The translations under genes were made by a program, and so were the position numbers. From IMG/VR virus record IMGVR_UViG_2737471839_000021, positions 1 through 11,464 of that record: 11,464 bases of DNA, one strand, 5' to 3'. Positions 1-11,464 of the stretch are shown one piece after another (the stretch's first letter is position 1; every line of letters starts with the position of its first letter). The stretch is from a virus. Its lineage: Duplodnaviria > Heunggongvirae > Uroviricota > Caudoviricetes. Under the pieces are notes generated by a model. That model searched no databases. It saw nothing but the letters and a program-made list of their open reading frames with translations, and had not been told where the DNA came from.

Positions 1-384
1 GCATACGAGATCGCAAAGGACTATTACGCTGGTGTGATGGCGAAAAAAGGCGTGGTATCAGGCGAAATTGACAATGATATCTGGAAACAGGCTGTTAACG
101 TAGCTACAGGTGGCGTGCATGACTATAACGGAATGGGGAATGTTCTTTTGCCGTGGGGAATGTCTGCAGAGCAATTCGATAAGCAGGTTAATCAGGCTTG
201 GAATGAACAAGTTGTCGGCACAGGGATAAAAACACCGCCTGGTCAGTATGGTTTGCAAAGTTACGGCGATAGTCAGTACCTGGTAAAACTTGGGACTGGA
301 TATCTGCTGAAGGATGATGGTTCTCCTGTTGTTCTTGATCTGACACAGAAGCGTCAGAGATTCTCCGGAGATATTCCGCAATGA
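1..384 (+). CDS. 3' fragment of a phage virion gene; the 5' end lies upstream of the window
   Basis: Frame 1 is open from base 1 to TGA at 382-384, so the listed 34..384 ORF is a 5'-truncated gene. Its stop overlaps the next start (ATGA at 381-384), typical of coupled phage structural operons. No recognisable motif. Confidence 0.5.
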   Translation, partial: AYEIAKDYYAGVMAKKGVVSGEIDNDIWKQAVNVATGGVHDYNGMGNVLLPWGMSAEQFDKQVNQAWNEQVVGTGIKTPPGQYGLQSYGDSQYLVKLGTGYLLKDDGSPVVLDLTQKRQRFSGDIPQ

Positions 385-2183
385 GTTACTTTGGCCTTAA
401 TCCAGTAAACCAGAATCAGCAGCTTGACGAAGCAGTATCAAATCCAGCTGGCTTTAACAGCGATGTTGGTTTTTTCGACAATGCTGTAGGAGCGGCATTG
501 TCTGGTTTGTACTCCGGGCTGGTGGCAAAGCCAGATCAGTTGCTATGGGCAGGGATGGATAAAATCGTATCCCCGATTGCTCAGTTTGTTAACGAAAACA
601 CCTCGCTCAATGACACTTCAGTTTCATACATTGCCGAGCAGAGAAAACTAGCAGAGCAGCAGGTTAAGCGGCTGACGCCTGATGCCGCGACAACCGGAAC
701 CGCAGGGCAGGTTCTTTATGGGTTGTTCGATATGGGCGGGCAGGCTGTTGTCGGTACAACGCTCGGTGGTCAGGTCGGAGGTGCGGCGGCGGTAACTTCG
801 CTACAGGGTTTTTCTGAGTTTGAACGGCTGACAGCACAGGGTGTTGATTTCAGGACAGCGCAGGAAGCGGGATTAGTGCAGGGCATTACTGCTGGTGCCG
901 GAACATTGATCCCTATGAGCCTCGGGTTACGTGCTGGTGGTGCGCTGGCGGAAGGTGTGGCGGCTCAGCTCGCGCGGACGGGTGAGAGTTCAGTGCGACG
1001 CGCCGCAGCAACAGCAGTACGTGCAACGCCAGATATTGCCTATGCCGCAGGTACAAATATTGCGTTCGGTATGGCACAGCGTGGGCTTACTGCAAAAACG
1101 CTTCGTGATGGTGGCTATAGCGAAATGGCTAACCAGTATGATGTGTTGGATCGACAGGCAATTGCTATTGATGCTGTTCTTGGGGTGGCGTTTGGTGGTG
1201 TTGGCAGATTTATTAACTCTCGCGGCGAGTCTACAAGCGCACCAAATTTTTCACCAGTTGATGTCGATGCTGCACTGGCGGCGAATGCCGCTCATCATGC
1301 TGAAATTGATATTGCTCCCGGCGTGCCGATCAACGTGCTTTCGCGCAATTCTCACATTCAGGCTCTGCGAAAAGCTATGTCTGATGTTAGCCAGGGGAGA
1401 CCTGTAGACGTTGCCAGCATTGTTGAGTCTGCATCTTTCAGTGAAATTCCAGGGCGCAAGAGTCTGCTGTCTCAGGCAGTTAATGAGGCTCTGTCATCTG
1501 TAGATGATGGAGTAACGGCGCGCGCTATAGAAAATCGGTTGCTTGAAGAACAGGCCGCGCAGCTTTTGCCGCGTGGCGATAGACAGGTTTACCAGTCTGA
1601 AATCGCTAATAGCCAACGAATTATTGAAAATCTCACTGAACAGCGCGCACAAATTCTTGCAGAAGAGCCAACAGGTAGCGGTAAAGCTTTGTCTCGTGCT
1701 CGATCAGATAAACAGGTCAGACTTCACGATATTGACCAACGAATCCGGCAGGCACAAGAACGCCTGGAATTTTCCCGTAACGCGTTGGCACCGCATGAGC
1801 CTGGCGGTCAGTTTTTTGAAGCTCGAGCAGAACTGGCACGGCGACAGCAGGCTGAAAGTGAACTTAATGCTCAGGCTGTTTCATTCTATAAAACAGCAGA
1901 GGTAAGTACGCCAGACGAAGTAGCTCCTTTTGAGCCCGGTAAGATATTGCAACAGGCAGAACAAAAGATGATGGCAGATCCGGCAGGAGATATTGATCTG
2001 CGCATAGCTGAAGATTCGCTGCTTGAATCACCGGACATGATAATAACCGTGCTGGATGATGATGGTAATCCACAATCGCGCAGCGCGCGTGAAGTGCTGG
2101 ATGAAGCGAACAGGGAAAGTGAGCAGGCAATACACGATTCCAGCCTGTTTGATGTCGCTGTGGCGTGTTTCTTGAGAGGTTAA
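381..2183 (+). CDS. Putative internal virion / ejection protein (600 aa)
   Basis: Long ORF in operon position just upstream of the tailspike. Gly/Ala/Thr-rich low-complexity N-terminal third, charged helical C-terminal half, no catalytic motif seen. Start overlaps upstream stop. Functional label rests on position and composition only. Confidence 0.55.
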   Translation: MSYFGLNPVNQNQQLDEAVSNPAGFNSDVGFFDNAVGAALSGLYSGLVAKPDQLLWAGMDKIVSPIAQFVNENTSLNDTSVSYIAEQRKLAEQQVKRLTPDAATTGTAGQVLYGLFDMGGQAVVGTTLGGQVGGAAAVTSLQGFSEFERLTAQGVDFRTAQEAGLVQGITAGAGTLIPMSLGLRAGGALAEGVAAQLARTGESSVRRAAATAVRATPDIAYAAGTNIAFGMAQRGLTAKTLRDGGYSEMANQYDVLDRQAIAIDAVLGVAFGGVGRFINSRGESTSAPNFSPVDVDAALAANAAHHAEIDIAPGVPINVLSRNSHIQALRKAMSDVSQGRPVDVASIVESASFSEIPGRKSLLSQAVNEALSSVDDGVTARAIENRLLEEQAAQLLPRGDRQVYQSEIANSQRIIENLTEQRAQILAEEPTGSGKALSRARSDKQVRLHDIDQRIRQAQERLEFSRNALAPHEPGGQFFEARAELARRQQAESELNAQAVSFYKTAEVSTPDEVAPFEPGKILQQAEQKMMADPAGDIDLRIAEDSLLESPDMIITVLDDDGNPQSRSAREVLDEANRESEQAIHDSSLFDVAVACFLRG

Positions 2184-2188
2184 ATTAA

Positions 2189-4663
2189 ATGAGACAGGAA
2201 TGTATACAAGCGGTCCAGCAGGCGGCGCAGCGCACGTTAACGGCGCGAGAAATACAGAACATTGAAGACCGCATTTATCGAAATATGCGCTCCATTGCTC
2301 GTGATGACCCGATGTCGTGGCGACAACTTTCCGAATCAGAACGGTTGTATCGTGCAGCACAATTGGCATCTGAAGAATTACAGCGAGAAGCGGCATTAAA
2401 GAAACGTCGTGTGGCCCTCACTATAGCCGCACGTCAGAGATTGGATAAATTTATCAATAGCTATCAAGGGGCTGATGGGAAACTTGGCGCTCTTAACCGT
2501 ACTATTGCTTTTAATGCAGACGGTAAATCGAATTTCCTCTCTGTTGAATCCAGAACAAAAGCCACCCGTGATTATGCATTGAGTCGATTGCAGGAGGCAT
2601 TCGAAGCAGTTGATCCTCGCTTTTTTGGTCTGTTTGAAGATGAAGCGGGCGTACGTGACCTGGTATATGAAATGCGGGGGCAAAATACTGGCAATGCTAA
2701 AGCAAGAAAAGGTGCTAAGGCGTGGAGAGAAGTTACAGAGCTGCTGCGCCGCCGGTTTAATGATGCTGGTGGGGACATTGGCTATCTCGAAAACTGGGGG
2801 ATCCCTCAACATCATTCTATGGAAAAGGTTGGGGCGGTATCAAAAGATAAATGGGTTAGCGATATTATAGGTAAGCTGGATCGCAAATATTATACCCGAG
2901 CCGATGGACAACTGATGAACGATGCCGAGTTGTCTGCATTTCTTGGAGAGGCTTATAACACGATCGCTACTGGTGGGCTGAATAAGCTTACTGATACCGG
3001 AATGCGAATTTCCGGCGCACGTGCTAACCGTGGTAATGCATCACGACAGATACATTTCAAAGATGCAGATTCCTATCTCCAATATCAACAACTTTATGGC
3101 GATCGCTCTCTATGGGAAATCATGGTCGGTCACCTGGAAGGTATCAGTAAAGATATTGCTCTGGTGGAAACATATGGTCCAAACCCCGATCATGTTTTCC
3201 GCTCCCTTCTTGATCAGGTTAAGGCAGAAACGGCAACAGCTAACCCGAGTAAAACCGGTAAAGTCGAGCGGCTGGCGAACAACACAGAGAATCTGTACAA
3301 CTTTATTTCCGGAAAGACACAGCCTGTAGCGAATCCGCACATCGCGCGATGGTCTGACAATATCCGCAACTGGCTGGTTGCCAGCAGACTCGGATCCGCG
3401 TTGCTGTCATCGTTCTCTGATCTTGGAACCATGTATCTGTCTGCGAAGGTTACCAACCTTCCAATGAACCAGTTATTCCGCAACCAACTTGAAGCTATGG
3501 ACCCAACGAACCGTACAGAACTTGCGCGGGCGCGCCGCGCTGGTCTGGCGATGGAATCTCTACTTGGCAGCGTTAACCGATGGGCGATGGATAATATGGG
3601 GCCGTCAGTGTCTCGTTGGGCGGCGACGGCGGTAATGCGTGCCAGTGGGCTTACAGCATGGTCAGATGCGCACAAGCGCGCCTATGGCGTAACCATGATG
3701 GGAAGCCTGGGAGAAGTAGTGTCACGGACACCAGACCTTCGTAGCCTCGATGACTCTGATTTTCGTATCCTGAAAAGCAAAGGGATTACTGACACAGACT
3801 GGAGCGTATGGAAGTTGGCGCAACAGGAGGACTGGGGGAACGGTAATAATACGATGCTGACACCAGAAAGCATTATGCGTATCCCTGATTCAGCAGTTAA
3901 ACATCTTGGTGAGCCTGAACGCGTGAAATTTGAGGCAATGCGTAAACTGCTCGGTGCCGTAACTGAAGAAGTTGATATGGCTGTTATTACACCGGGAGCA
4001 CGTGAGAAACTGATAACCGGTTCTGGTATTCAGCGTGGAACATGGAAAGGTGAATTAACGAGAAGTGTTTTCCTGTTTAAATCGTTCCCTATCTCGGTTG
4101 TTATGCGTCACTGGTCACGCGCTATGGGTATGCCGTCTGCTGGTGGGCGTGCGGCATATATTGCGACGTTTATTGCCAGTACGACCATTCTTGGCGCTTT
4201 GTCGCAGCAACTTAACGACCTTGCGTCGGGTCGTAATCCTCGAGAGATGACAGGAGAAGATGCCGCAAAATTCTGGCTTGGTGCTCTACTGAAAGGTGGT
4301 GGTCTTGGCCTTTACGGTGACTTTTTATTGTCAGATCACACTAGGTACGGAAGCGGCGCGCTGGCGTCGATGCTTGGCCCGGTAGCTGGTCTGGTTGATG
4401 ACGTAGTGAAGATTGCTCAGGGCATACCGTTAAATGCTGTGGAAGGGAAGAGTGAGCAGACTGGTGGTGATCTGGTGAAGCTGGGGAAAGGTTTGATGCC
4501 AGGTGCGAATCTCTGGTACTTGAAGGCGGCTCTCGATCACATGATCTTTAACCAGATGCAGGAGTATTTTTCACCAGGCTATTTGCGTAAAATGGAGCAA
4601 CGTTCGAAGAAAGAGTTTAACCAGACATACTGGTGGCGACCTCAGGATGTCACTCCGCAATAA
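2189..4663 (+). CDS. Putative large internal virion / ejection protein (824 aa)
   Basis: Starts 6 nt after the previous stop with GAGAGG about 9 nt upstream. Uninterrupted 2.4 kb ORF with a Gly-rich hydrophobic C-terminal segment (GGGLGLYGDFLL...GPVAGLVDDV). Size and position fit the large core/ejection protein of podoviruses; no sequence search was possible. Confidence 0.55.
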   Translation: MRQECIQAVQQAAQRTLTAREIQNIEDRIYRNMRSIARDDPMSWRQLSESERLYRAAQLASEELQREAALKKRRVALTIAARQRLDKFINSYQGADGKLGALNRTIAFNADGKSNFLSVESRTKATRDYALSRLQEAFEAVDPRFFGLFEDEAGVRDLVYEMRGQNTGNAKARKGAKAWREVTELLRRRFNDAGGDIGYLENWGIPQHHSMEKVGAVSKDKWVSDIIGKLDRKYYTRADGQLMNDAELSAFLGEAYNTIATGGLNKLTDTGMRISGARANRGNASRQIHFKDADSYLQYQQLYGDRSLWEIMVGHLEGISKDIALVETYGPNPDHVFRSLLDQVKAETATANPSKTGKVERLANNTENLYNFISGKTQPVANPHIARWSDNIRNWLVASRLGSALLSSFSDLGTMYLSAKVTNLPMNQLFRNQLEAMDPTNRTELARARRAGLAMESLLGSVNRWAMDNMGPSVSRWAATAVMRASGLTAWSDAHKRAYGVTMMGSLGEVVSRTPDLRSLDDSDFRILKSKGITDTDWSVWKLAQQEDWGNGNNTMLTPESIMRIPDSAVKHLGEPERVKFEAMRKLLGAVTEEVDMAVITPGAREKLITGSGIQRGTWKGELTRSVFLFKSFPISVVMRHWSRAMGMPSAGGRAAYIATFIASTTILGALSQQLNDLASGRNPREMTGEDAAKFWLGALLKGGGLGLYGDFLLSDHTRYGSGALASMLGPVAGLVDDVVKIAQGIPLNAVEGKSEQTGGDLVKLGKGLMPGANLWYLKAALDHMIFNQMQEYFSPGYLRKMEQRSKKEFNQTYWWRPQDVTPQ

Positions 4664-4858: not shown

Positions 4859-5155
4859 ATGCAAGCTATAGGATTCATTGTTTATATCGTCGTTGGTCTT
4901 TTTCAGTTGGCAGCAATTATGGCTGGGCTTGAATCATGGTGGGGATTGCACTGGATAATTGCAGCCCCCATTGCTTTCATCGTGAGCTATATTCCATTTG
5001 TTGGAGCGATTGTTGGTATGGTTGGCGCTGTGGATGTATGGCGGTGGGAGTGGTGGCAGGCTGGCCTTCTCTTCTTTGGTGGGATCATCTTTGCTATTGT
5101 CTGCGGTGGAATGTCATCATTTTTCGAATGGCTATCATTCAGAAAAGGGACGTGA
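4859..5155 (+). CDS. Small Trp-rich integral membrane protein (98 aa, about 3 TM helices), unknown function
   Basis: ATG at 4859 preceded by AGGTGA. Three long hydrophobic segments (IGFIVYIVVGLFQLAAIMAGL, WIIAAPIAFIVSYIPFVGAIVGMVGAV, AGLLFFGGIIFAIVCGG) with Trp clusters at the segment borders. Followed directly by an intrinsic terminator. Confidence 0.6.
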   Translation: MQAIGFIVYIVVGLFQLAAIMAGLESWWGLHWIIAAPIAFIVSYIPFVGAIVGMVGAVDVWRWEWWQAGLLFFGGIIFAIVCGGMSSFFEWLSFRKGT

Positions 5156-5190
5156 CATGTCACAGGCCGCTTTCGCGGCCTTTTCTTTAT
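5152..5190. terminator. Bidirectional intrinsic terminator between convergent genes
   Basis: Perfect 12-bp palindrome GTGACATGTCAC (5152-5163) overlaps the TGA of the membrane-protein gene. It is followed by a GC hairpin AGGCCGC-tttc-GCGGCCT (5164-5181) and a T-run (5182-5188). On the minus strand the same hairpins are followed by TTTTCT. Confidence 0.55.
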
Positions 5191-5444
5191 GTGGTTTGTT
5201 TTCGTAATTGTTCGGCACAATAGTCGAGATGTGTTTGCAGATCCTGCATAGACATCTGTGAGCTGGTGACGTAGTTAATCAGTGCAGTCAGTTCGGCAAG
5301 TGGGCCATCGACATTAAATCCATCCTTATCGAGATCCCGGAGTAATTTCATCAAGTGCGATCCCTCCACCAGTGATCTGACGCCTCCCGGCGTGTGAATC
5401 CTTTCGGTAAATCCGTCTTCCAGTGGATAGTGATACTGCTGCAT
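5187..5444 (-). CDS. Small soluble acidic protein (85 aa) of unknown function with a LexA box in its promoter; candidate SOS-inducible antirepressor or effector
   Basis: Minus-strand ORF. The track begins at a TTG (5462), but the first ATG (5444) is preceded by GGAGAAG with about 8-nt spacing, so 5444 is taken as start. Product MQQYHYPLEDGFTERIHTPGG...DYCAEQLRKQTT has no TM segment. LexA box lies 20 bp upstream. Confidence 0.6.
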   Translation of the reverse strand: MQQYHYPLEDGFTERIHTPGGVRSLVEGSHLMKLLRDLDKDGFNVDGPLAELTALINYVTSSQMSMQDLQTHLDYCAEQLRKQTT

Positions 5445-5463
5445 CTTATCTTCTCCATGCAAT

Positions 5464-5483
5464 AACTGTATATTTATACAGTA
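5464..5483. promoter_or_regulatory. LexA (SOS) operator, near-consensus
   Basis: AACTGTATATTTATACAGTA: CTGT-N8-ACAG with an AT-rich spacer, matching the E. coli LexA consensus TACTG(TA)5CAGTA; the core ACTGTATA..TATACAGT is a perfect palindrome. Sits 20-40 bp upstream of the minus-strand start at 5444, overlapping the expected promoter. Confidence 0.65.
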
Positions 5484-5639
5484 TCAAATAATTTGTTTGC
5501 TATCCAGCACGTTTTGCAAATCACCTGAAAGGTAATATCTGTTCGTATTTATGGGTTGTCTATCCATATGTGGTTTTTCAGGTAATAGAATAACCGGATA
5601 TGCGGCGCAACGGGTGCTGCGACTATCTGGAGATTTAAC

Positions 5640-8279
5640 ATGACGGTCTCAACCGAAGTTAACCACAACGAATACACAGGTAATGGTGTTACGACCACAT
5701 TCCCTTACACCTTTAGGGTTTTCAATAAATCTGATCTGGTGGTGCAGGTTATTGACCTTGAAGAAAATATCGCTGTGCTGGCTCCTGATACTGATTACAC
5801 CGTTACCGGGGCTGGAGGATATAACGGCGGTAATGTAATTCTGTCGAAGGCACTGGCTAACGGTTATCAGATTTCTATATCGCGAGAACTGAAGGTTACT
5901 CAGGAAACAGATCTGAGAAACCAGGGTAAGTTTTTTGCTGAGGTGCATGAAGACGCGTTCGATAAGCTGACTATGCTGATTCAGCAGGTGCGCAGTTTGT
6001 TTTCTCTGGCCCTTCGTAAGCCGTCGTTTGTGGCTAACTATTATGATGCTCTGAACAACTATATTAGAAATCTTCGCGATCCCATACGCCAACAGGATGC
6101 GGCTACAAAGAACTATGTGGATATGCTTGCTGAAAATAATATAAACAAAACACTGCGTGTTCCTGAGGGTTTTATACCATCACTTCCACCTGTATCTCAG
6201 CGAAAAAACAAAATTGTAGCTATGAACGATAATGGCGTTCCAATTATGGTATTGCCGGAAAGCGGTTCTGCTGCGGATGTGCTTATAGAGTTAGCTAAAT
6301 CCAATGGCACAAATAATATAAACGGAACAAAACACGTTCTTGGAGCTGAAGCAAGAAATCTTACTGACATGTTGTCTGACGAGATATCAGTTCGTGATTT
6401 TGGTGGTAATGATGATTACGATGGAACAAATTCTGATTCATGCACAAATAACCTGATTGCTTTTCAAAAATATTTTGAATACCTGAACTCTATTGGTGGT
6501 GGGAATTTAAATATACCAAAGACAAACACAGGCAAGTATTATATTAGTGGTGATGATCATACGCATGTGTCAAGTGATATTATGATATGTGCTGATAATG
6601 ATGTTTCTATTCATCTAAATTTTTCTGGTGGGTCATCAAACACTCCATTTGCTAACCTTGACCTGAAAGCATTACGTCAAATAAAAATAGAGTATGTTAA
6701 TTTTGGTTACAATTCATATGTTGGTGGGAGAGTCGATGTTCCGTTAGGTGACTTACTGCAAACCATGAATAATGGTAGCGGTGTCTACTCAATTCCAGAA
6801 TCTCTATCAGGAGATAATTTTTTCGTTATCGCACTGGGTAACAACACCACATCAATACCTCCGATATCATCAAGTGCAGATTCTATTTTATTTAATGGTT
6901 CAGGTGTTCCAACAGCGGCCACGATAAGCGCAATGCCTGGCGATGAAATTATGTCAATGGTTAGCGCACCGGTAACAGGAGGTATCCTTGCTGGTGTTGT
7001 GACGGCCGGTGGTTATGCGTTTGTATCTCAAGATACATCAACCGGAGATGTTGTTATTGCAGAAGGTACAACTGGTCAGCCAAATATACTTAACGGATTG
7101 AATTACGCTCTGATGGACCAATTGCGCGATAGATTTGACATGGCGCTGCTATCAGTAAAAGTTACTTCATCAAGAACTTTTACTGTAATGGCGAATGGTT
7201 TGGCAGTCGCAAGCCACACGACACGCTCGACAATTCTTGGTGTCTGTTTTGGTGCTAAAGATATTAACAATACAATCAGTGTTTCTCAGATGTCGCGTGT
7301 AAGGGGGAATAGCTTTTCTGGATCAAAACCATTAAAAATATTGGTATGCGGGGATTCTATTACTGATCAAAATAACCAGTATTCATGGGCCAAATATCTC
7401 CAGATGCAGTTGGGATCAGCTGGGATTAACATTGCTGAAATTAAAAATCTGGCAGTTGCTGGCCATACGGCAGCACAGCAATTAAGCATATTGCAGACAG
7501 TAGGCGTTGGTTATGATCTGTGCTTAATTCAGGTCGGAGTTAATGATGTTCAGATGCAAACTCCTGTTTTTAGTTTTATGTCAACAATAAGTCAAATGGT
7601 TACTTATTCTAAAAGCATTGGCGCATTTCCTATTGTTGGTGTACCAACGGCTTTTTATTCTCTTGCCGAAGCGAATGCTAACGGTCAAAGAGGAGGCCAG
7701 AATACATCAAACAATAATCTTATAGGTTTGTATCGTTCTTTGCTTATACGAGCTGTGGCATCGGCTGGTGGGATTGTTAATCTTGAACCTATGAAAGGAC
7801 ATGGGGCGATGACAGCGAAGTGGCTATCGATTGATCCGTATGCTGTTAGTGACAGCATTGTATTAGATAACATTCACCCAACACCATACGGTTCAATGCT
7901 ACTTGCGCAGGGATTCTCGCGCAGCATTATTGGTTGGCTTACTCGCCCTGATTTAACAGCAACAGAAAGTTTTGAATCAATCCCTACTCAGTGGTTAAGT
8001 CCCGGTTTTGGTACGACGTCGCTACCTAAAATCAAAGGAAGAACATTATCTGGTTTAATTAGTTTACATGAAACAAACATAAATGATGGCTCATTAGCAT
8101 TTACTCTGCCTCCTGCAATAAAACTTGATCAGCCAAGAATGCTAAGCGTTATTGGTGTTGGAGACAATGATCTCCCGGTTGGTCCATGCAGCATGTATAT
8201 AGGCACTGACGGAAAATGCTATTTTTTTAACCTTGCAGCAGGAACGAAGAAAATCTCACTTGATGGAGTTGAGATTTAG
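5640..8279 (+). CDS. Tailspike / tail fibre (879 aa): T7 gp17-like N-terminal anchor, beta-helix signature, SGNH/GDSL esterase domain
   Basis: ATG 5640 with GGAG upstream. Residues about 10-150 follow the T7 gp17 N-terminal tail-attachment pattern (YTGNG..FPYTF, TDYTV, EVHEDAFDKL). Around residue 250, SVRDFGGNDDYDGTNSD resembles the (V)xDFGAxGDGxTDD opening of beta-helix tailspikes. SGNH blocks: GDSIT (Ser 573, nt 7356-7358), GVND (res 633-636), DNIH (Asp 743/His 746, nt 7866-7877). Confidence 0.85.
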   Translation: MTVSTEVNHNEYTGNGVTTTFPYTFRVFNKSDLVVQVIDLEENIAVLAPDTDYTVTGAGGYNGGNVILSKALANGYQISISRELKVTQETDLRNQGKFFAEVHEDAFDKLTMLIQQVRSLFSLALRKPSFVANYYDALNNYIRNLRDPIRQQDAATKNYVDMLAENNINKTLRVPEGFIPSLPPVSQRKNKIVAMNDNGVPIMVLPESGSAADVLIELAKSNGTNNINGTKHVLGAEARNLTDMLSDEISVRDFGGNDDYDGTNSDSCTNNLIAFQKYFEYLNSIGGGNLNIPKTNTGKYYISGDDHTHVSSDIMICADNDVSIHLNFSGGSSNTPFANLDLKALRQIKIEYVNFGYNSYVGGRVDVPLGDLLQTMNNGSGVYSIPESLSGDNFFVIALGNNTTSIPPISSSADSILFNGSGVPTAATISAMPGDEIMSMVSAPVTGGILAGVVTAGGYAFVSQDTSTGDVVIAEGTTGQPNILNGLNYALMDQLRDRFDMALLSVKVTSSRTFTVMANGLAVASHTTRSTILGVCFGAKDINNTISVSQMSRVRGNSFSGSKPLKILVCGDSITDQNNQYSWAKYLQMQLGSAGINIAEIKNLAVAGHTAAQQLSILQTVGVGYDLCLIQVGVNDVQMQTPVFSFMSTISQMVTYSKSIGAFPIVGVPTAFYSLAEANANGQRGGQNTSNNNLIGLYRSLLIRAVASAGGIVNLEPMKGHGAMTAKWLSIDPYAVSDSIVLDNIHPTPYGSMLLAQGFSRSIIGWLTRPDLTATESFESIPTQWLSPGFGTTSLPKIKGRTLSGLISLHETNINDGSLAFTLPPAIKLDQPRMLSVIGVGDNDLPVGPCSMYIGTDGKCYFFNLAAGTKKISLDGVEI

Positions 8280-9078: not shown

Positions 9079-9697
9079 ACAATTCCAGCGAGCTGCTGGT
9101 ATCAGCGAGGCGCTGGCTGCACGCTGGTTCTCGCATATTAATTATGCGATGAAAGAATTTGGTATCAGCAAACCAGAAGATCTGGCAATGTTTATTGCTC
9201 AGGTCGGGCATGAGTCTGTTGGCTTCACCAGATTGCAGGAGAATTTCAACTACAGTGTCAGTGGACTGGCTAACTTCGTTCGGGCTGGGCGTCTCACTCA
9301 GGGGCAGGCTAATGCACTGGGTCGCCGTGCTGGTGAACCACCATTGCCACTCGAGCGCCAGCGAGCGATCGCCAATCTGGTGTACAGCAAACGCATGGGG
9401 AACAATGCCCCTGGTGATGGCTGGAATTACCGGGGACGCGGACTTATCCAGATTACCGGTTTGAATAACTATCGTGATTGCGGAAACGGTCTGAAGGTTG
9501 ACCTGCTGGAGAGCCCTGAACTGCTGGCGCAGGACGAATATGCGGCTCGTAGCGCGGCGTGGTTCTTCGCCAGCAAAGGATGCATGAAGTATACCGGAGA
9601 TATTGCACGTGTAACTCTGATTATCAATGGCGGTAGGAATGGCATCGACGACAGGCGCGCGCGGTACATCACTGCCAGTAAGGTGCTGGTGGTATGA
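9068..9697 (+). CDS. Endolysin, glycoside hydrolase family 19 (chitinase-like) type
   Basis: 209 aa; ATG 9068 preceded by GAGG. Carries [12 protein letters not shown]...QENFNYS with two closely spaced Glu (GH19 catalytic pair arrangement) and GRGLIQITG. No signal peptide or TM, consistent with holin-dependent release. Stop overlaps the Rz start (ATGA at 9694-9697). Confidence 0.85.
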
Positions 9698-10176
9698 TCT
9701 GGGCATTCGTAAAAGCATACTGGAAACAGTTGGTTATCATGGCGATGCTTGCTGTTCTGGTTATATCAGGAGTTGTAGCCTGGAATGCACACGGCAGTCG
9801 TCAGTACGACGCCGGGTATGCGCAGGCGAAAGAAGACTGCAAAGCCGAAGAAGAAAAAGTTCGTCAGCACCACGAACAGGAGAAAGCGACCAATGAACGT
9901 GAAGCGCAGCAGAGGATCGAACAGGCGCGCAGTGATGCTCTTGATGCTGCCGCTCGCGCTGGCAGGTTGCAGCAACAGCTCGTTGCCATCCGTGAGCAGC
10001 TCAGGCAGTATAACGCCATTGTCGGCGCTGGGTCGTCAGCCGCAGATACCGGAGTTTTGCTTGCCGACGTGTTCAGCAAATCTCTCGAGAGAAATAGACA
10101 ACTGGCAGAGTATGCTGACCGGGCAGCCGAAGCCGGAAGAGTCTGCGAAAAACAGTACGACACCATGACCAGATAG
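9694..10176 (+). CDS. Rz: Rz-type inner-membrane spanin (i-spanin), 160 aa
   Basis: N-terminal TM anchor ([21 protein letters not shown]) followed by a charged, coiled-coil-prone periplasmic domain. Immediately downstream of the endolysin and contains an embedded +1-frame lipoprotein ORF. Confidence 0.8.
9893..10168 (+). CDS. Rz1: Rz1-type outer-membrane lipoprotein spanin (o-spanin), embedded in Rz in the +1 frame
   Basis: Within track ORF 9785..10168, Met at 9893 begins [28 protein letters not shown]...: basic n-region, hydrophobic core, lipobox LAGC, then a Pro/Ser-rich short mature peptide. Start could alternatively be Met 9935. Entirely inside Rz. Confidence 0.7.
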   Translation: MNVKRSRGSNRRAVMLLMLPLALAGCSNSSLPSVSSSGSITPLSALGRQPQIPEFCLPTCSANLSREIDNWQSMLTGQPKPEESAKNSTTP

Positions 10177-10325
10177 CATGGCATTTTTCATGGTACTGAT
10201 TTTTGGTGACGGTATATAAAACGGTATGGTGAAAATCATGTTGCAGAAAGTTGTTGTCAGTCAATTGGTTATGTATTTCGTAAATAATTGAGTGGGAATG
10301 ATTTGACCCTGCACTATGAATGAAC

Positions 10326-10393: not shown

Positions 10394-10933
10394 TTAATTA
10401 AACCAGCTGTCCGATTTGTTCTCTTCTGCTTTGCCCACGCTTTTCATCAGATCGCGACCGCCTTCAGTCATATTTCTGTTGGCGTCAGCTTCAGATTGCA
10501 CCACATCGGTTTGCGCAGCTTTGTGCTTCAGTTCCTGATCGATAAATTCGTTTTCTCGCTTAACGCGGGCTTCTTCTTTCGCCAGCGCCAGTTTTTGTTT
10601 CTGAATCTCTAAGCTGCGTAGCTCATCTTCATAACTTTGATCGCGTTTTTTGTCCGCAGAGGCTTCGGCGTCCAGTTTATCCTGACGAGCTTTCTTATTT
10701 GCCGCTGCCGTTGCCGCTCTTTTGTTAGCGGCGGCCTGGGCATTTGCGCGACGTTGCTTCTCTTGCTGGATTTCCCTGTTGCGCTCCGCGACCCATTCGT
10801 CATGCTGCCTTTGCTCTTCATTTTTACCTTGCTGTTCCGCTTCTGCGACAGCAGAGAGTTGATCCTGCAATGATGAGGCGATAGCCGGATAGCTTAAGGA
10901 GGCTAAGATGGCGCAAAGAAAAACTTTCTTCAT
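10394..10933 (-). CDS. Secreted, highly charged (K/E/R/A/Q-rich) probable coiled-coil periplasmic protein (179 aa)
   Basis: N-terminal signal peptide MKKVFLCAILASLSYPAIA with an AxA cleavage site, then low-complexity charged helical sequence. RBS AGGAGGAG upstream on the minus strand. No enzymatic motif. Confidence 0.6.
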   Translation of the reverse strand: MKKVFLCAILASLSYPAIASSLQDQLSAVAEAEQQGKNEEQRQHDEWVAERNREIQQEKQRRANAQAAANKRAATAAANKKARQDKLDAEASADKKRDQSYEDELRSLEIQKQKLALAKEEARVKRENEFIDQELKHKAAQTDVVQSEADANRNMTEGGRDLMKSVGKAEENKSDSWFN

Positions 10934-10948
10934 GACTCCTCCTGATTA

Positions 10949-11464
10949 TTAGCTCTTTTCAGGACATTTGGTATTTGGCTGAATACGCGTTTCGTTATAC
11001 GTCGTGGTAATAACAACGGCTAAACCTGTCGTAAACTGGCACTCTTTACCCACCTGGGTAGAGGTATACACTTTGGTGCCTTCCTTATAGGTTAAAGAAA
11101 CACCTTCCACTAAGGTTTTATCATTCACCATAGAACCCGCTGCCGCGCCTACAGCTCCGCCGCCAACTGCACCTGCCGTCGTTCCGGAATTGCTGCCAGA
11201 CCCGACGTTGTGGCCGATAACACCGCCAGCGACTGCGCCAATAAGCGCGCCGAAGGCTTGTGCGTTCCGTTTATTTTGGGAGTTGTCTACGGCAACTTTT
11301 GCGGGAAGAATGGAAATAATATTAACGGTTTTAGTTTCTTGTTTGGTATTCAGTTGATCGGTTTGATAAACATCGGCAGCATGATCGTCAGCATTTGACT
11401 GGCATCCTGCCAGAGTGAATGACGCTAACATTGCCACAGGCAGAAGACATTTTTTAAATTTCAT
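10949..11464 (-). CDS. Outer-membrane lipoprotein with glycine-zipper domain (SlyB / 17-kDa-antigen-like), 171 aa
   Basis: Start ATG is the last 3 nt of the window (11462-11464). Lipoprotein signal MKFKKCLLPVAMLASFTLAGCQ with lipobox LAGC. Central GALIGAVAGGVIGHNVGSGSNSGTTAGAVGGGAVGAAAG is a glycine-zipper motif as in SlyB-family lipoproteins. Runs 15 nt upstream of the secreted-protein gene on the same strand, a likely two-gene operon. Confidence 0.7.
   Translation of the reverse strand: MKFKKCLLPVAMLASFTLAGCQSNADDHAADVYQTDQLNTKQETKTVNIISILPAKVAVDNSQNKRNAQAFGALIGAVAGGVIGHNVGSGSNSGTTAGAVGGGAVGAAAGSMVNDKTLVEGVSLTYKEGTKVYTSTQVGKECQFTTGLAVVITTTYNETRIQPNTKCPEKS

Follow-up and report, generated by a model that had tools for sequence, protein, structure and literature searches.

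What is the function of a small gene that runs against the surrounding late genes of a phage and is preceded by an apparent SOS operator? The question is raised by the window analysed here, a stretch of 11,464 nucleotides of viral DNA in which an 85-aa minus-strand open reading frame (5444-5187) lies close to a LexA box at 5464-5483. Sequence and coordinates of both elements were given correctly in the first-pass annotation of this DNA, which suggested that the product may be an undescribed SOS-triggered antirepressor, an anti-defence factor or a host-targeting effector. We find that the feature is real but already known, belonging to the characterised LexA-Ant switch of epsilon15-like phages. 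The gene is referred to below as ant and its product as Ant.

Prophage setting of the locus

On sequence grounds, what the window holds is the right arm of a Uetakevirus prophage, phiV10/epsilon15-like, whose integration site is the 3' end of guaA in E. coli: an exact copy of the attR core ATTGAGTGGGAATGATT at 10287-10303 marks the prophage end and is followed by the host genes yfgI (10394-10933) and yfgH (10949-11464), both on the minus strand. The same core is the attachment sequence of phiV10, epsilon15 and ZX5 (PMC9782041). The closest colinear complete prophage, that of E. coli 22-245, sits between guaA and yfgI and is 97.8% identical over 98% of the window.

Plus-strand virion genes (381-4663 and 4859-5155) lie to the left of ant and the plus-strand tailspike gene (5640-8279) to its right, leaving ant antiparallel to its neighbours on both sides, as had been observed at first pass. 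The order of products along the window is gp16-like and gp17-like virion proteins, a small membrane protein, Ant from the opposite strand and the tailspike, followed downstream by two holins, a GH19 endolysin and an Rz-like spanin. Gene order around ant is common to the window, SPC32H, epsilon15, phiV10 and BUCT554. The slot that ant occupies, between virion operon and tailspike, on the opposite strand and outside the immunity region, is that of SPC32H-type Ant. An Rfam scan of the whole window gave no match. In the tailspike itself, the N-terminal ~230 aa are those conserved in Uetakevirus, and aa 567-757 form a GDSL/SGNH esterase domain; this suggests a receptor-modifying enzyme, a deacetylase or esterase, rather than a glycanase.

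The ant gene, its product and the predicted target

The ant coding sequence (5187-5444, minus strand) runs from an ATG at 5444 to a TAA at 5189-5187. A GGAG ribosome-binding site at 5453-5456, 8 nt upstream of the ATG on the same strand, is invariant in nine of nine aligned phages and bears out the earlier description of the gene as well equipped for translation initiation. A longer reading of 91 aa from a TTG at 5462 was rejected: this codon adjoins the LexA box and is without a ribosome-binding site, and it is further disfavoured because the start annotated for SPC32H ant aligns with the ATG. When ant of the window is compared with that of SPC32H, synonymous differences are near saturation (pS 0.66), and dN/dS is 0.047. 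Because dN/dS is this low despite near-saturated synonymous sites, ant is, by its substitution pattern, a maintained coding gene under strong purifying selection.

The intrinsic terminator of the plus-strand virion operon, a GC-rich hairpin with a T-run (5164-5181, plus strand), begins 5 nt past the ant stop codon. Its 7-bp stem has six GC pairs and is followed by TTTTCTTT, and the homologous stem-loop carries a terminator annotation in the epsilon15 record. On the ant strand, no T-run follows the hairpin. Just ahead of the hairpin, GTGACATGTCAC (5150-5161) forms a perfect 12-bp palindrome over the stop codon of the 98-aa membrane-protein open reading frame. At 5156-5186, the slot bounded by the virion-operon terminator and the ant stop is empty in the window and takes up variable cargo in relatives, where it is filled by Bro-N/AntA proteins, DUF4760 and small membrane proteins (3280-3959 of relative L002, 2073-2777 of L006 and 5687-7341 of L012).

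By homology, the 85-aa product is the E. coli prophage orthologue of SPC32H Ant, an antirepressor that has already been described. A sequence search of the PDB returned a single match, 5D50 chain E, 'Anti-repressor protein' (residues 2-85, E=1.3e-47), and alignment with SPC32H_020, 'ant' in GenBank, gave 74/84 identical residues (88% over the full length). The SPC32H and SPC32N records both name this 88%-identical orthologue 'ant: anti-repressor protein'. PHROG 450 matches Ant over its full length (E=1.4e-47), and its sole functional PHROG neighbour is phrog_1760, 'anti-repressor' (E=4.5e-7). A tblastn search of 50,697 phage records (E<=1e-5) found full-length matches in 35, which come from Escherichia, Salmonella, Enterobacter and Klebsiella phages and one further phage, and which belong to Uetakevirus wherever taxonomy is shown. 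Identity is 84.5% for epsilon15 gp19, 97.6% for phiV10 p24 and 100% for the proteins of the E. coli phages TL-2011b, EC.W1-9 and ZX5 (over residues 1-84 in ZX5). The orthologues of epsilon15, phiV10, vB_EcoP_ZX5 and TL-2011b, at 84.5-100% identity, occupy the same slot and are all annotated 'hypothetical protein'. The family was reportedly characterised genetically by Kim & Ryu in 2013 and structurally by Kim et al. in 2016 (PDB 5D50), so that the epithet 'undescribed' does not hold.

Pfam and NCBIfam scans placed the 85-aa protein in no significant family. DUF724 (Pfam, 17.6 bits against a cutoff of 38.4) and UpsF (NCBIfam, 13 bits against 400) were set aside as chance matches far under threshold. 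With the sub-threshold DUF724 as its only hit, the Pfam scan showed neither a Bro-N (PF02498) nor an AntA (PF08346) domain. The initial remark that the product does not resemble DinI, Tum or YebG was upheld: the DinI and YebG family models of Pfam and NCBIfam did not match at E<=1, and homology to Tum, GfoA or GfhA was not detected, no 186, Fels or Gifsy record being among the 35 recovered by tblastn from the 50,697 searched.

The immunity region, rep included, is outside the window, whose phage sequence ends at attR. In the 97.8%-identical prophage of E. coli 22-245 (L011), a 194-aa helix-turn-helix (HTH) protein of the WP_000836290.1 type (9525-10109) occupies the position of SPC32H rep and matches 5D50 chain A, 'Repressor' (E=4e-42). 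Pfam finds HTH domains only in this protein, and Peptidase_S24 is absent. It is thus a two-HTH Rep without the S24 autocleavage domain, as is the cognate Rep of the SPC32H type, and this is consistent with a non-self-cleaving repressor that needs an antirepressor. Identity to SPC32H Rep (33739-34335 of L010) is 42-43%, with 53% in the N-terminal domain and 37% in the C-terminal domain. The C-terminal domain is reported in the 2016 structural paper to be the one that binds Ant. Since Rep is only 43% identical between the E. coli prophage and SPC32H while Ant is 88% identical, binding of Ant to Rep in E. coli would be an extrapolation from SPC32H; the operator half-sites ATTACC and GGTAAT are still common to both. 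The same Rep is found in phiV10, ZX5, phiv142-3 and typing phage 10 (PMC9782041).

The LexA box, the candidate promoter and a probable Rep operator

The LexA (SOS) box AACTGTATATTTATACAGTA (5464-5483; TACTGTATAAATATACAGTT on the ant strand) agrees with the consensus TACTGTATATATATACAGTA at 18 of 20 positions, and its two mismatches leave both the CTGT and ACAG arms intact around a spacer made up entirely of A and T. It is the sole match at <=3 mismatches in the 11.5-kb window, where it is also the sole exact CTGT-N8-ACAG, and 0/200 dinucleotide-preserving shuffles gave any such match. The box is therefore near-consensus, as first proposed. Its edge is 19 nt from the ant ATG; the close upstream position noted at first pass stands, but the gap of 20 bp then given does not. 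The ant-tailspike intergenic region was aligned for nine phages from E. coli, Salmonella, Enterobacter and Klebsiella. Throughout these nine epsilon15-like phages the box is kept, at 16-18/20 to the consensus, while neighbouring intergenic bases vary, and it lies 19 nt from the ATG in seven phages and 18 nt in two Klebsiella phages.

Over the 3.2-kb locus compared, SPC32H and SPC32N differ at two nucleotides, one of which is a C-to-A change that converts the ACAG arm of the LexA box to AAAG. This agrees with the genetics of Kim & Ryu 2013, in which two phages two nucleotides apart were reportedly distinguished by a mutation in a LexA site overlapping the ant promoter, leading to constitutive Ant and lytic growth. 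In the window, a candidate ant promoter can be placed by eye at 5473-5502 on the minus strand, with a -35 element TAGCAA (5502-5497), an 18-nt spacer and a -10 element TATAAA (5478-5473) that falls inside the LexA box. A sigma-70 consensus scan called no promoter over the box, the candidate being missed because of its weak -35. We infer that the LexA box overlaps the candidate ant promoter, an arrangement that fits the LexA site reported to overlap the promoter of SPC32H ant. Another minus-strand sequence, TAGACA-17-GATATT at 5562-5534 (9/12), was not relied on; the scan count was at background (3 versus 1.9 expected), and its -35 is not conserved in Salmonella phages.

A second palindrome, ATCACCTGAAAGGTAAT (5520-5536), separates the ant promoter from the tailspike gene and lies 37 bp upstream of the LexA box; it is a 17-bp sequence of the form ATTACC-N5-GGTAAT with one mismatch. 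The ATTACC and GGTAAT half-sites are invariant or nearly so in the nine phages, the single mismatch being in the window copy, and in the epsilon15 record their counterpart carries the annotation 'protein_bind: repressor'. The motif occurs in 11-12 copies in epsilon15 and SPC32H, two to three of them between rep and cro. Nine copies (0.08 expected) occur in a related E. coli prophage, some in its rep-cro region and others in front of late operons; the window has one match at <=1 mismatch. The palindrome at 5520-5536 is probably an operator at which Rep would bind.

The proposed switch, its alternatives and known systems

We favour, at a probability of roughly 93%, a LexA-Ant-Rep explanation in which ant is the SOS switch of a guaA-integrated phiV10/epsilon15-like prophage. 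In the lysogen, host LexA at the box 5464-5483, overlapping or abutting the ant promoter, would hold ant off. DNA damage would activate RecA, LexA would cleave itself and Ant would be made. By homology with SPC32H, Ant would bind the non-cleavable two-HTH Rep and split the DNA-binding Rep tetramer; loss of the tetramer would derepress the lytic promoters, and the prophage would be induced. For the E. coli element, LexA binding, SOS-dependent expression and Ant-Rep binding are predicted by homology, the SPC32N box mutation lending indirect support to the first two, and the case for the switch in the window rests on sequence identity, synteny, operator conservation, purifying selection and the S24-less Rep of near-identical prophages. 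The 88% identity to SPC32H Ant and the conserved position of the box also argue for the suggestion, made at first pass, of a small LexA-controlled antirepressor like that of an epsilon15-like podovirus. The sequence of events from LexA cleavage through Ant synthesis to repressor inhibition has been described (PMC7380047), as has the binding of an Ant tetramer to two Rep dimers, which breaks the Rep tetramer (PMC9638917).

Very unlikely, in our judgement, is an arrangement in which Ant is conserved without being the main trigger in E. coli phiV10-like prophages. Larger Bro-N/AntA neighbours would then carry out antirepression, leaving the small Ant redundant or active mainly in trans on other prophages. 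Such genes do adjoin ant, directly downstream and on the same strand, in relatives; phiV10, ZX5 and Tyrion have extra Bro-N cargo at this position, which the window is without. Their products (Tyrion gp20, phiV10 p23, ZX5 ORF4 and the AntA protein of L012) differ from Ant in having an N-terminal Bro-N or AntA domain, confirmed by Pfam, and some have Ant-like C-termini: Tyrion gp20 and the L012 AntA protein each end in ~75 residues that are homologous to Ant over its entire length (38-42% identity), whereas in phiV10 p23 only about 31 residues align with it. Overexpression of the ZX5 Bro-N protein ORF4 lowered lysogeny, and the ZX5 study, the only one to have been published on these phages in E. 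coli, assigned antirepression to that protein and left ant undiscussed (PMC9782041). The far greater divergence of Rep than of Ant also counts on this side. The window, however, has no second antirepressor gene, the terminator hairpin following directly upon ant as it does in SPC32H, whose reported switch is Ant by itself. Moreover, purifying selection on ant is strong and its LexA box is conserved, which points to a maintained SOS-linked function of Ant itself.

It is scarcely credible that the LexA box chiefly controls the divergent tailspike and lysis genes, or that it is a fortuitous palindrome. The box does sit within the 195-bp divergent intergenic region shared by ant and the tailspike gene, but the ant ATG is 19 nt away and the tailspike ATG 157 nt; over the nine phages the spacing between box and ant stays constant to within a nucleotide, and the box mutation of SPC32N is said to make Ant constitutive. 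The chance expectation of the box, zero by the shuffles, speaks against a fortuitous origin. A different primary role for the 85-aa protein, such as anti-defence or host takeover, is just as hard to credit. No support was found for the anti-defence factor or host-targeting effector raised at first pass, Pfam and NCBIfam yielding no significant family. Against such a role stand 88% identity to a protein whose crystal structure includes the repressor it targets and a functional PHROG neighbourhood consisting solely of 'anti-repressor'.

The LexA-Ant-Rep switch of epsilon15-like podoviruses thus has little discovery value, having already been published with both genetics and a crystal structure. 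Its practical value lies in annotation: once ant is recognised, guaA-integrated prophages are predicted to be SOS-inducible via antirepression and not via repressor cleavage. A survey of 5,426 complete E. coli genomes found ant together with its regulatory region (5187-5640 of the window) in 523, about 10%, and among the matches listed its RefSeq label is 'hypothetical protein'.

Three extensions of the switch can be envisaged. Because Ant is nearly frozen (88%, dN/dS 0.05) while Rep has diverged to 43%, it is conceivable that one type of Ant might inactivate Rep in various Uetakevirus prophages despite that divergence and so be a trans-acting, Gifsy-like induction signal between phages. The Ant-like C-termini of the Bro-N/AntA neighbours could act on the same repressor as a second input under different regulation. 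The Rep-type operator near the LexA box might add feedback by Rep on ant or on the tailspike gene. A joint reading that combines cross-phage Ant, the second input to Rep and Rep feedback through the operator is speculative, and we consider it doubtful.

Among known systems, GfoA and GfhA of Gifsy-1 and Gifsy-3 and Tum of coliphage 186 and Fels-2 are small antirepressors under direct LexA control that act on a non-cleavable repressor (PMC3121763). Ant of the window is predicted to share their logic, that of a small LexA-controlled antirepressor encoded outside the immunity region. The Gifsy and Tum systems differ from Ant in repressor family and in oligomeric mechanism, an Ant tetramer splitting a Rep tetramer (PMC9638917). 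With SPC32H the likeness takes in the protein (88% identity), the position and orientation of its gene, the GGAG, the LexA box 19 nt from the ATG and a Rep of the same fold family, present in prophages related to the window. On all features that can be compared in silico, Ant of the window belongs with the SPC32H Ant family. SPC32H Ant is reportedly a LexA-repressed antirepressor that inactivates the non-cleavable SPC32H Rep. Its counterpart in the window differs from it in being one codon shorter (Arg3 is missing), in 10 mostly conservative substitutions and in its E. coli host.
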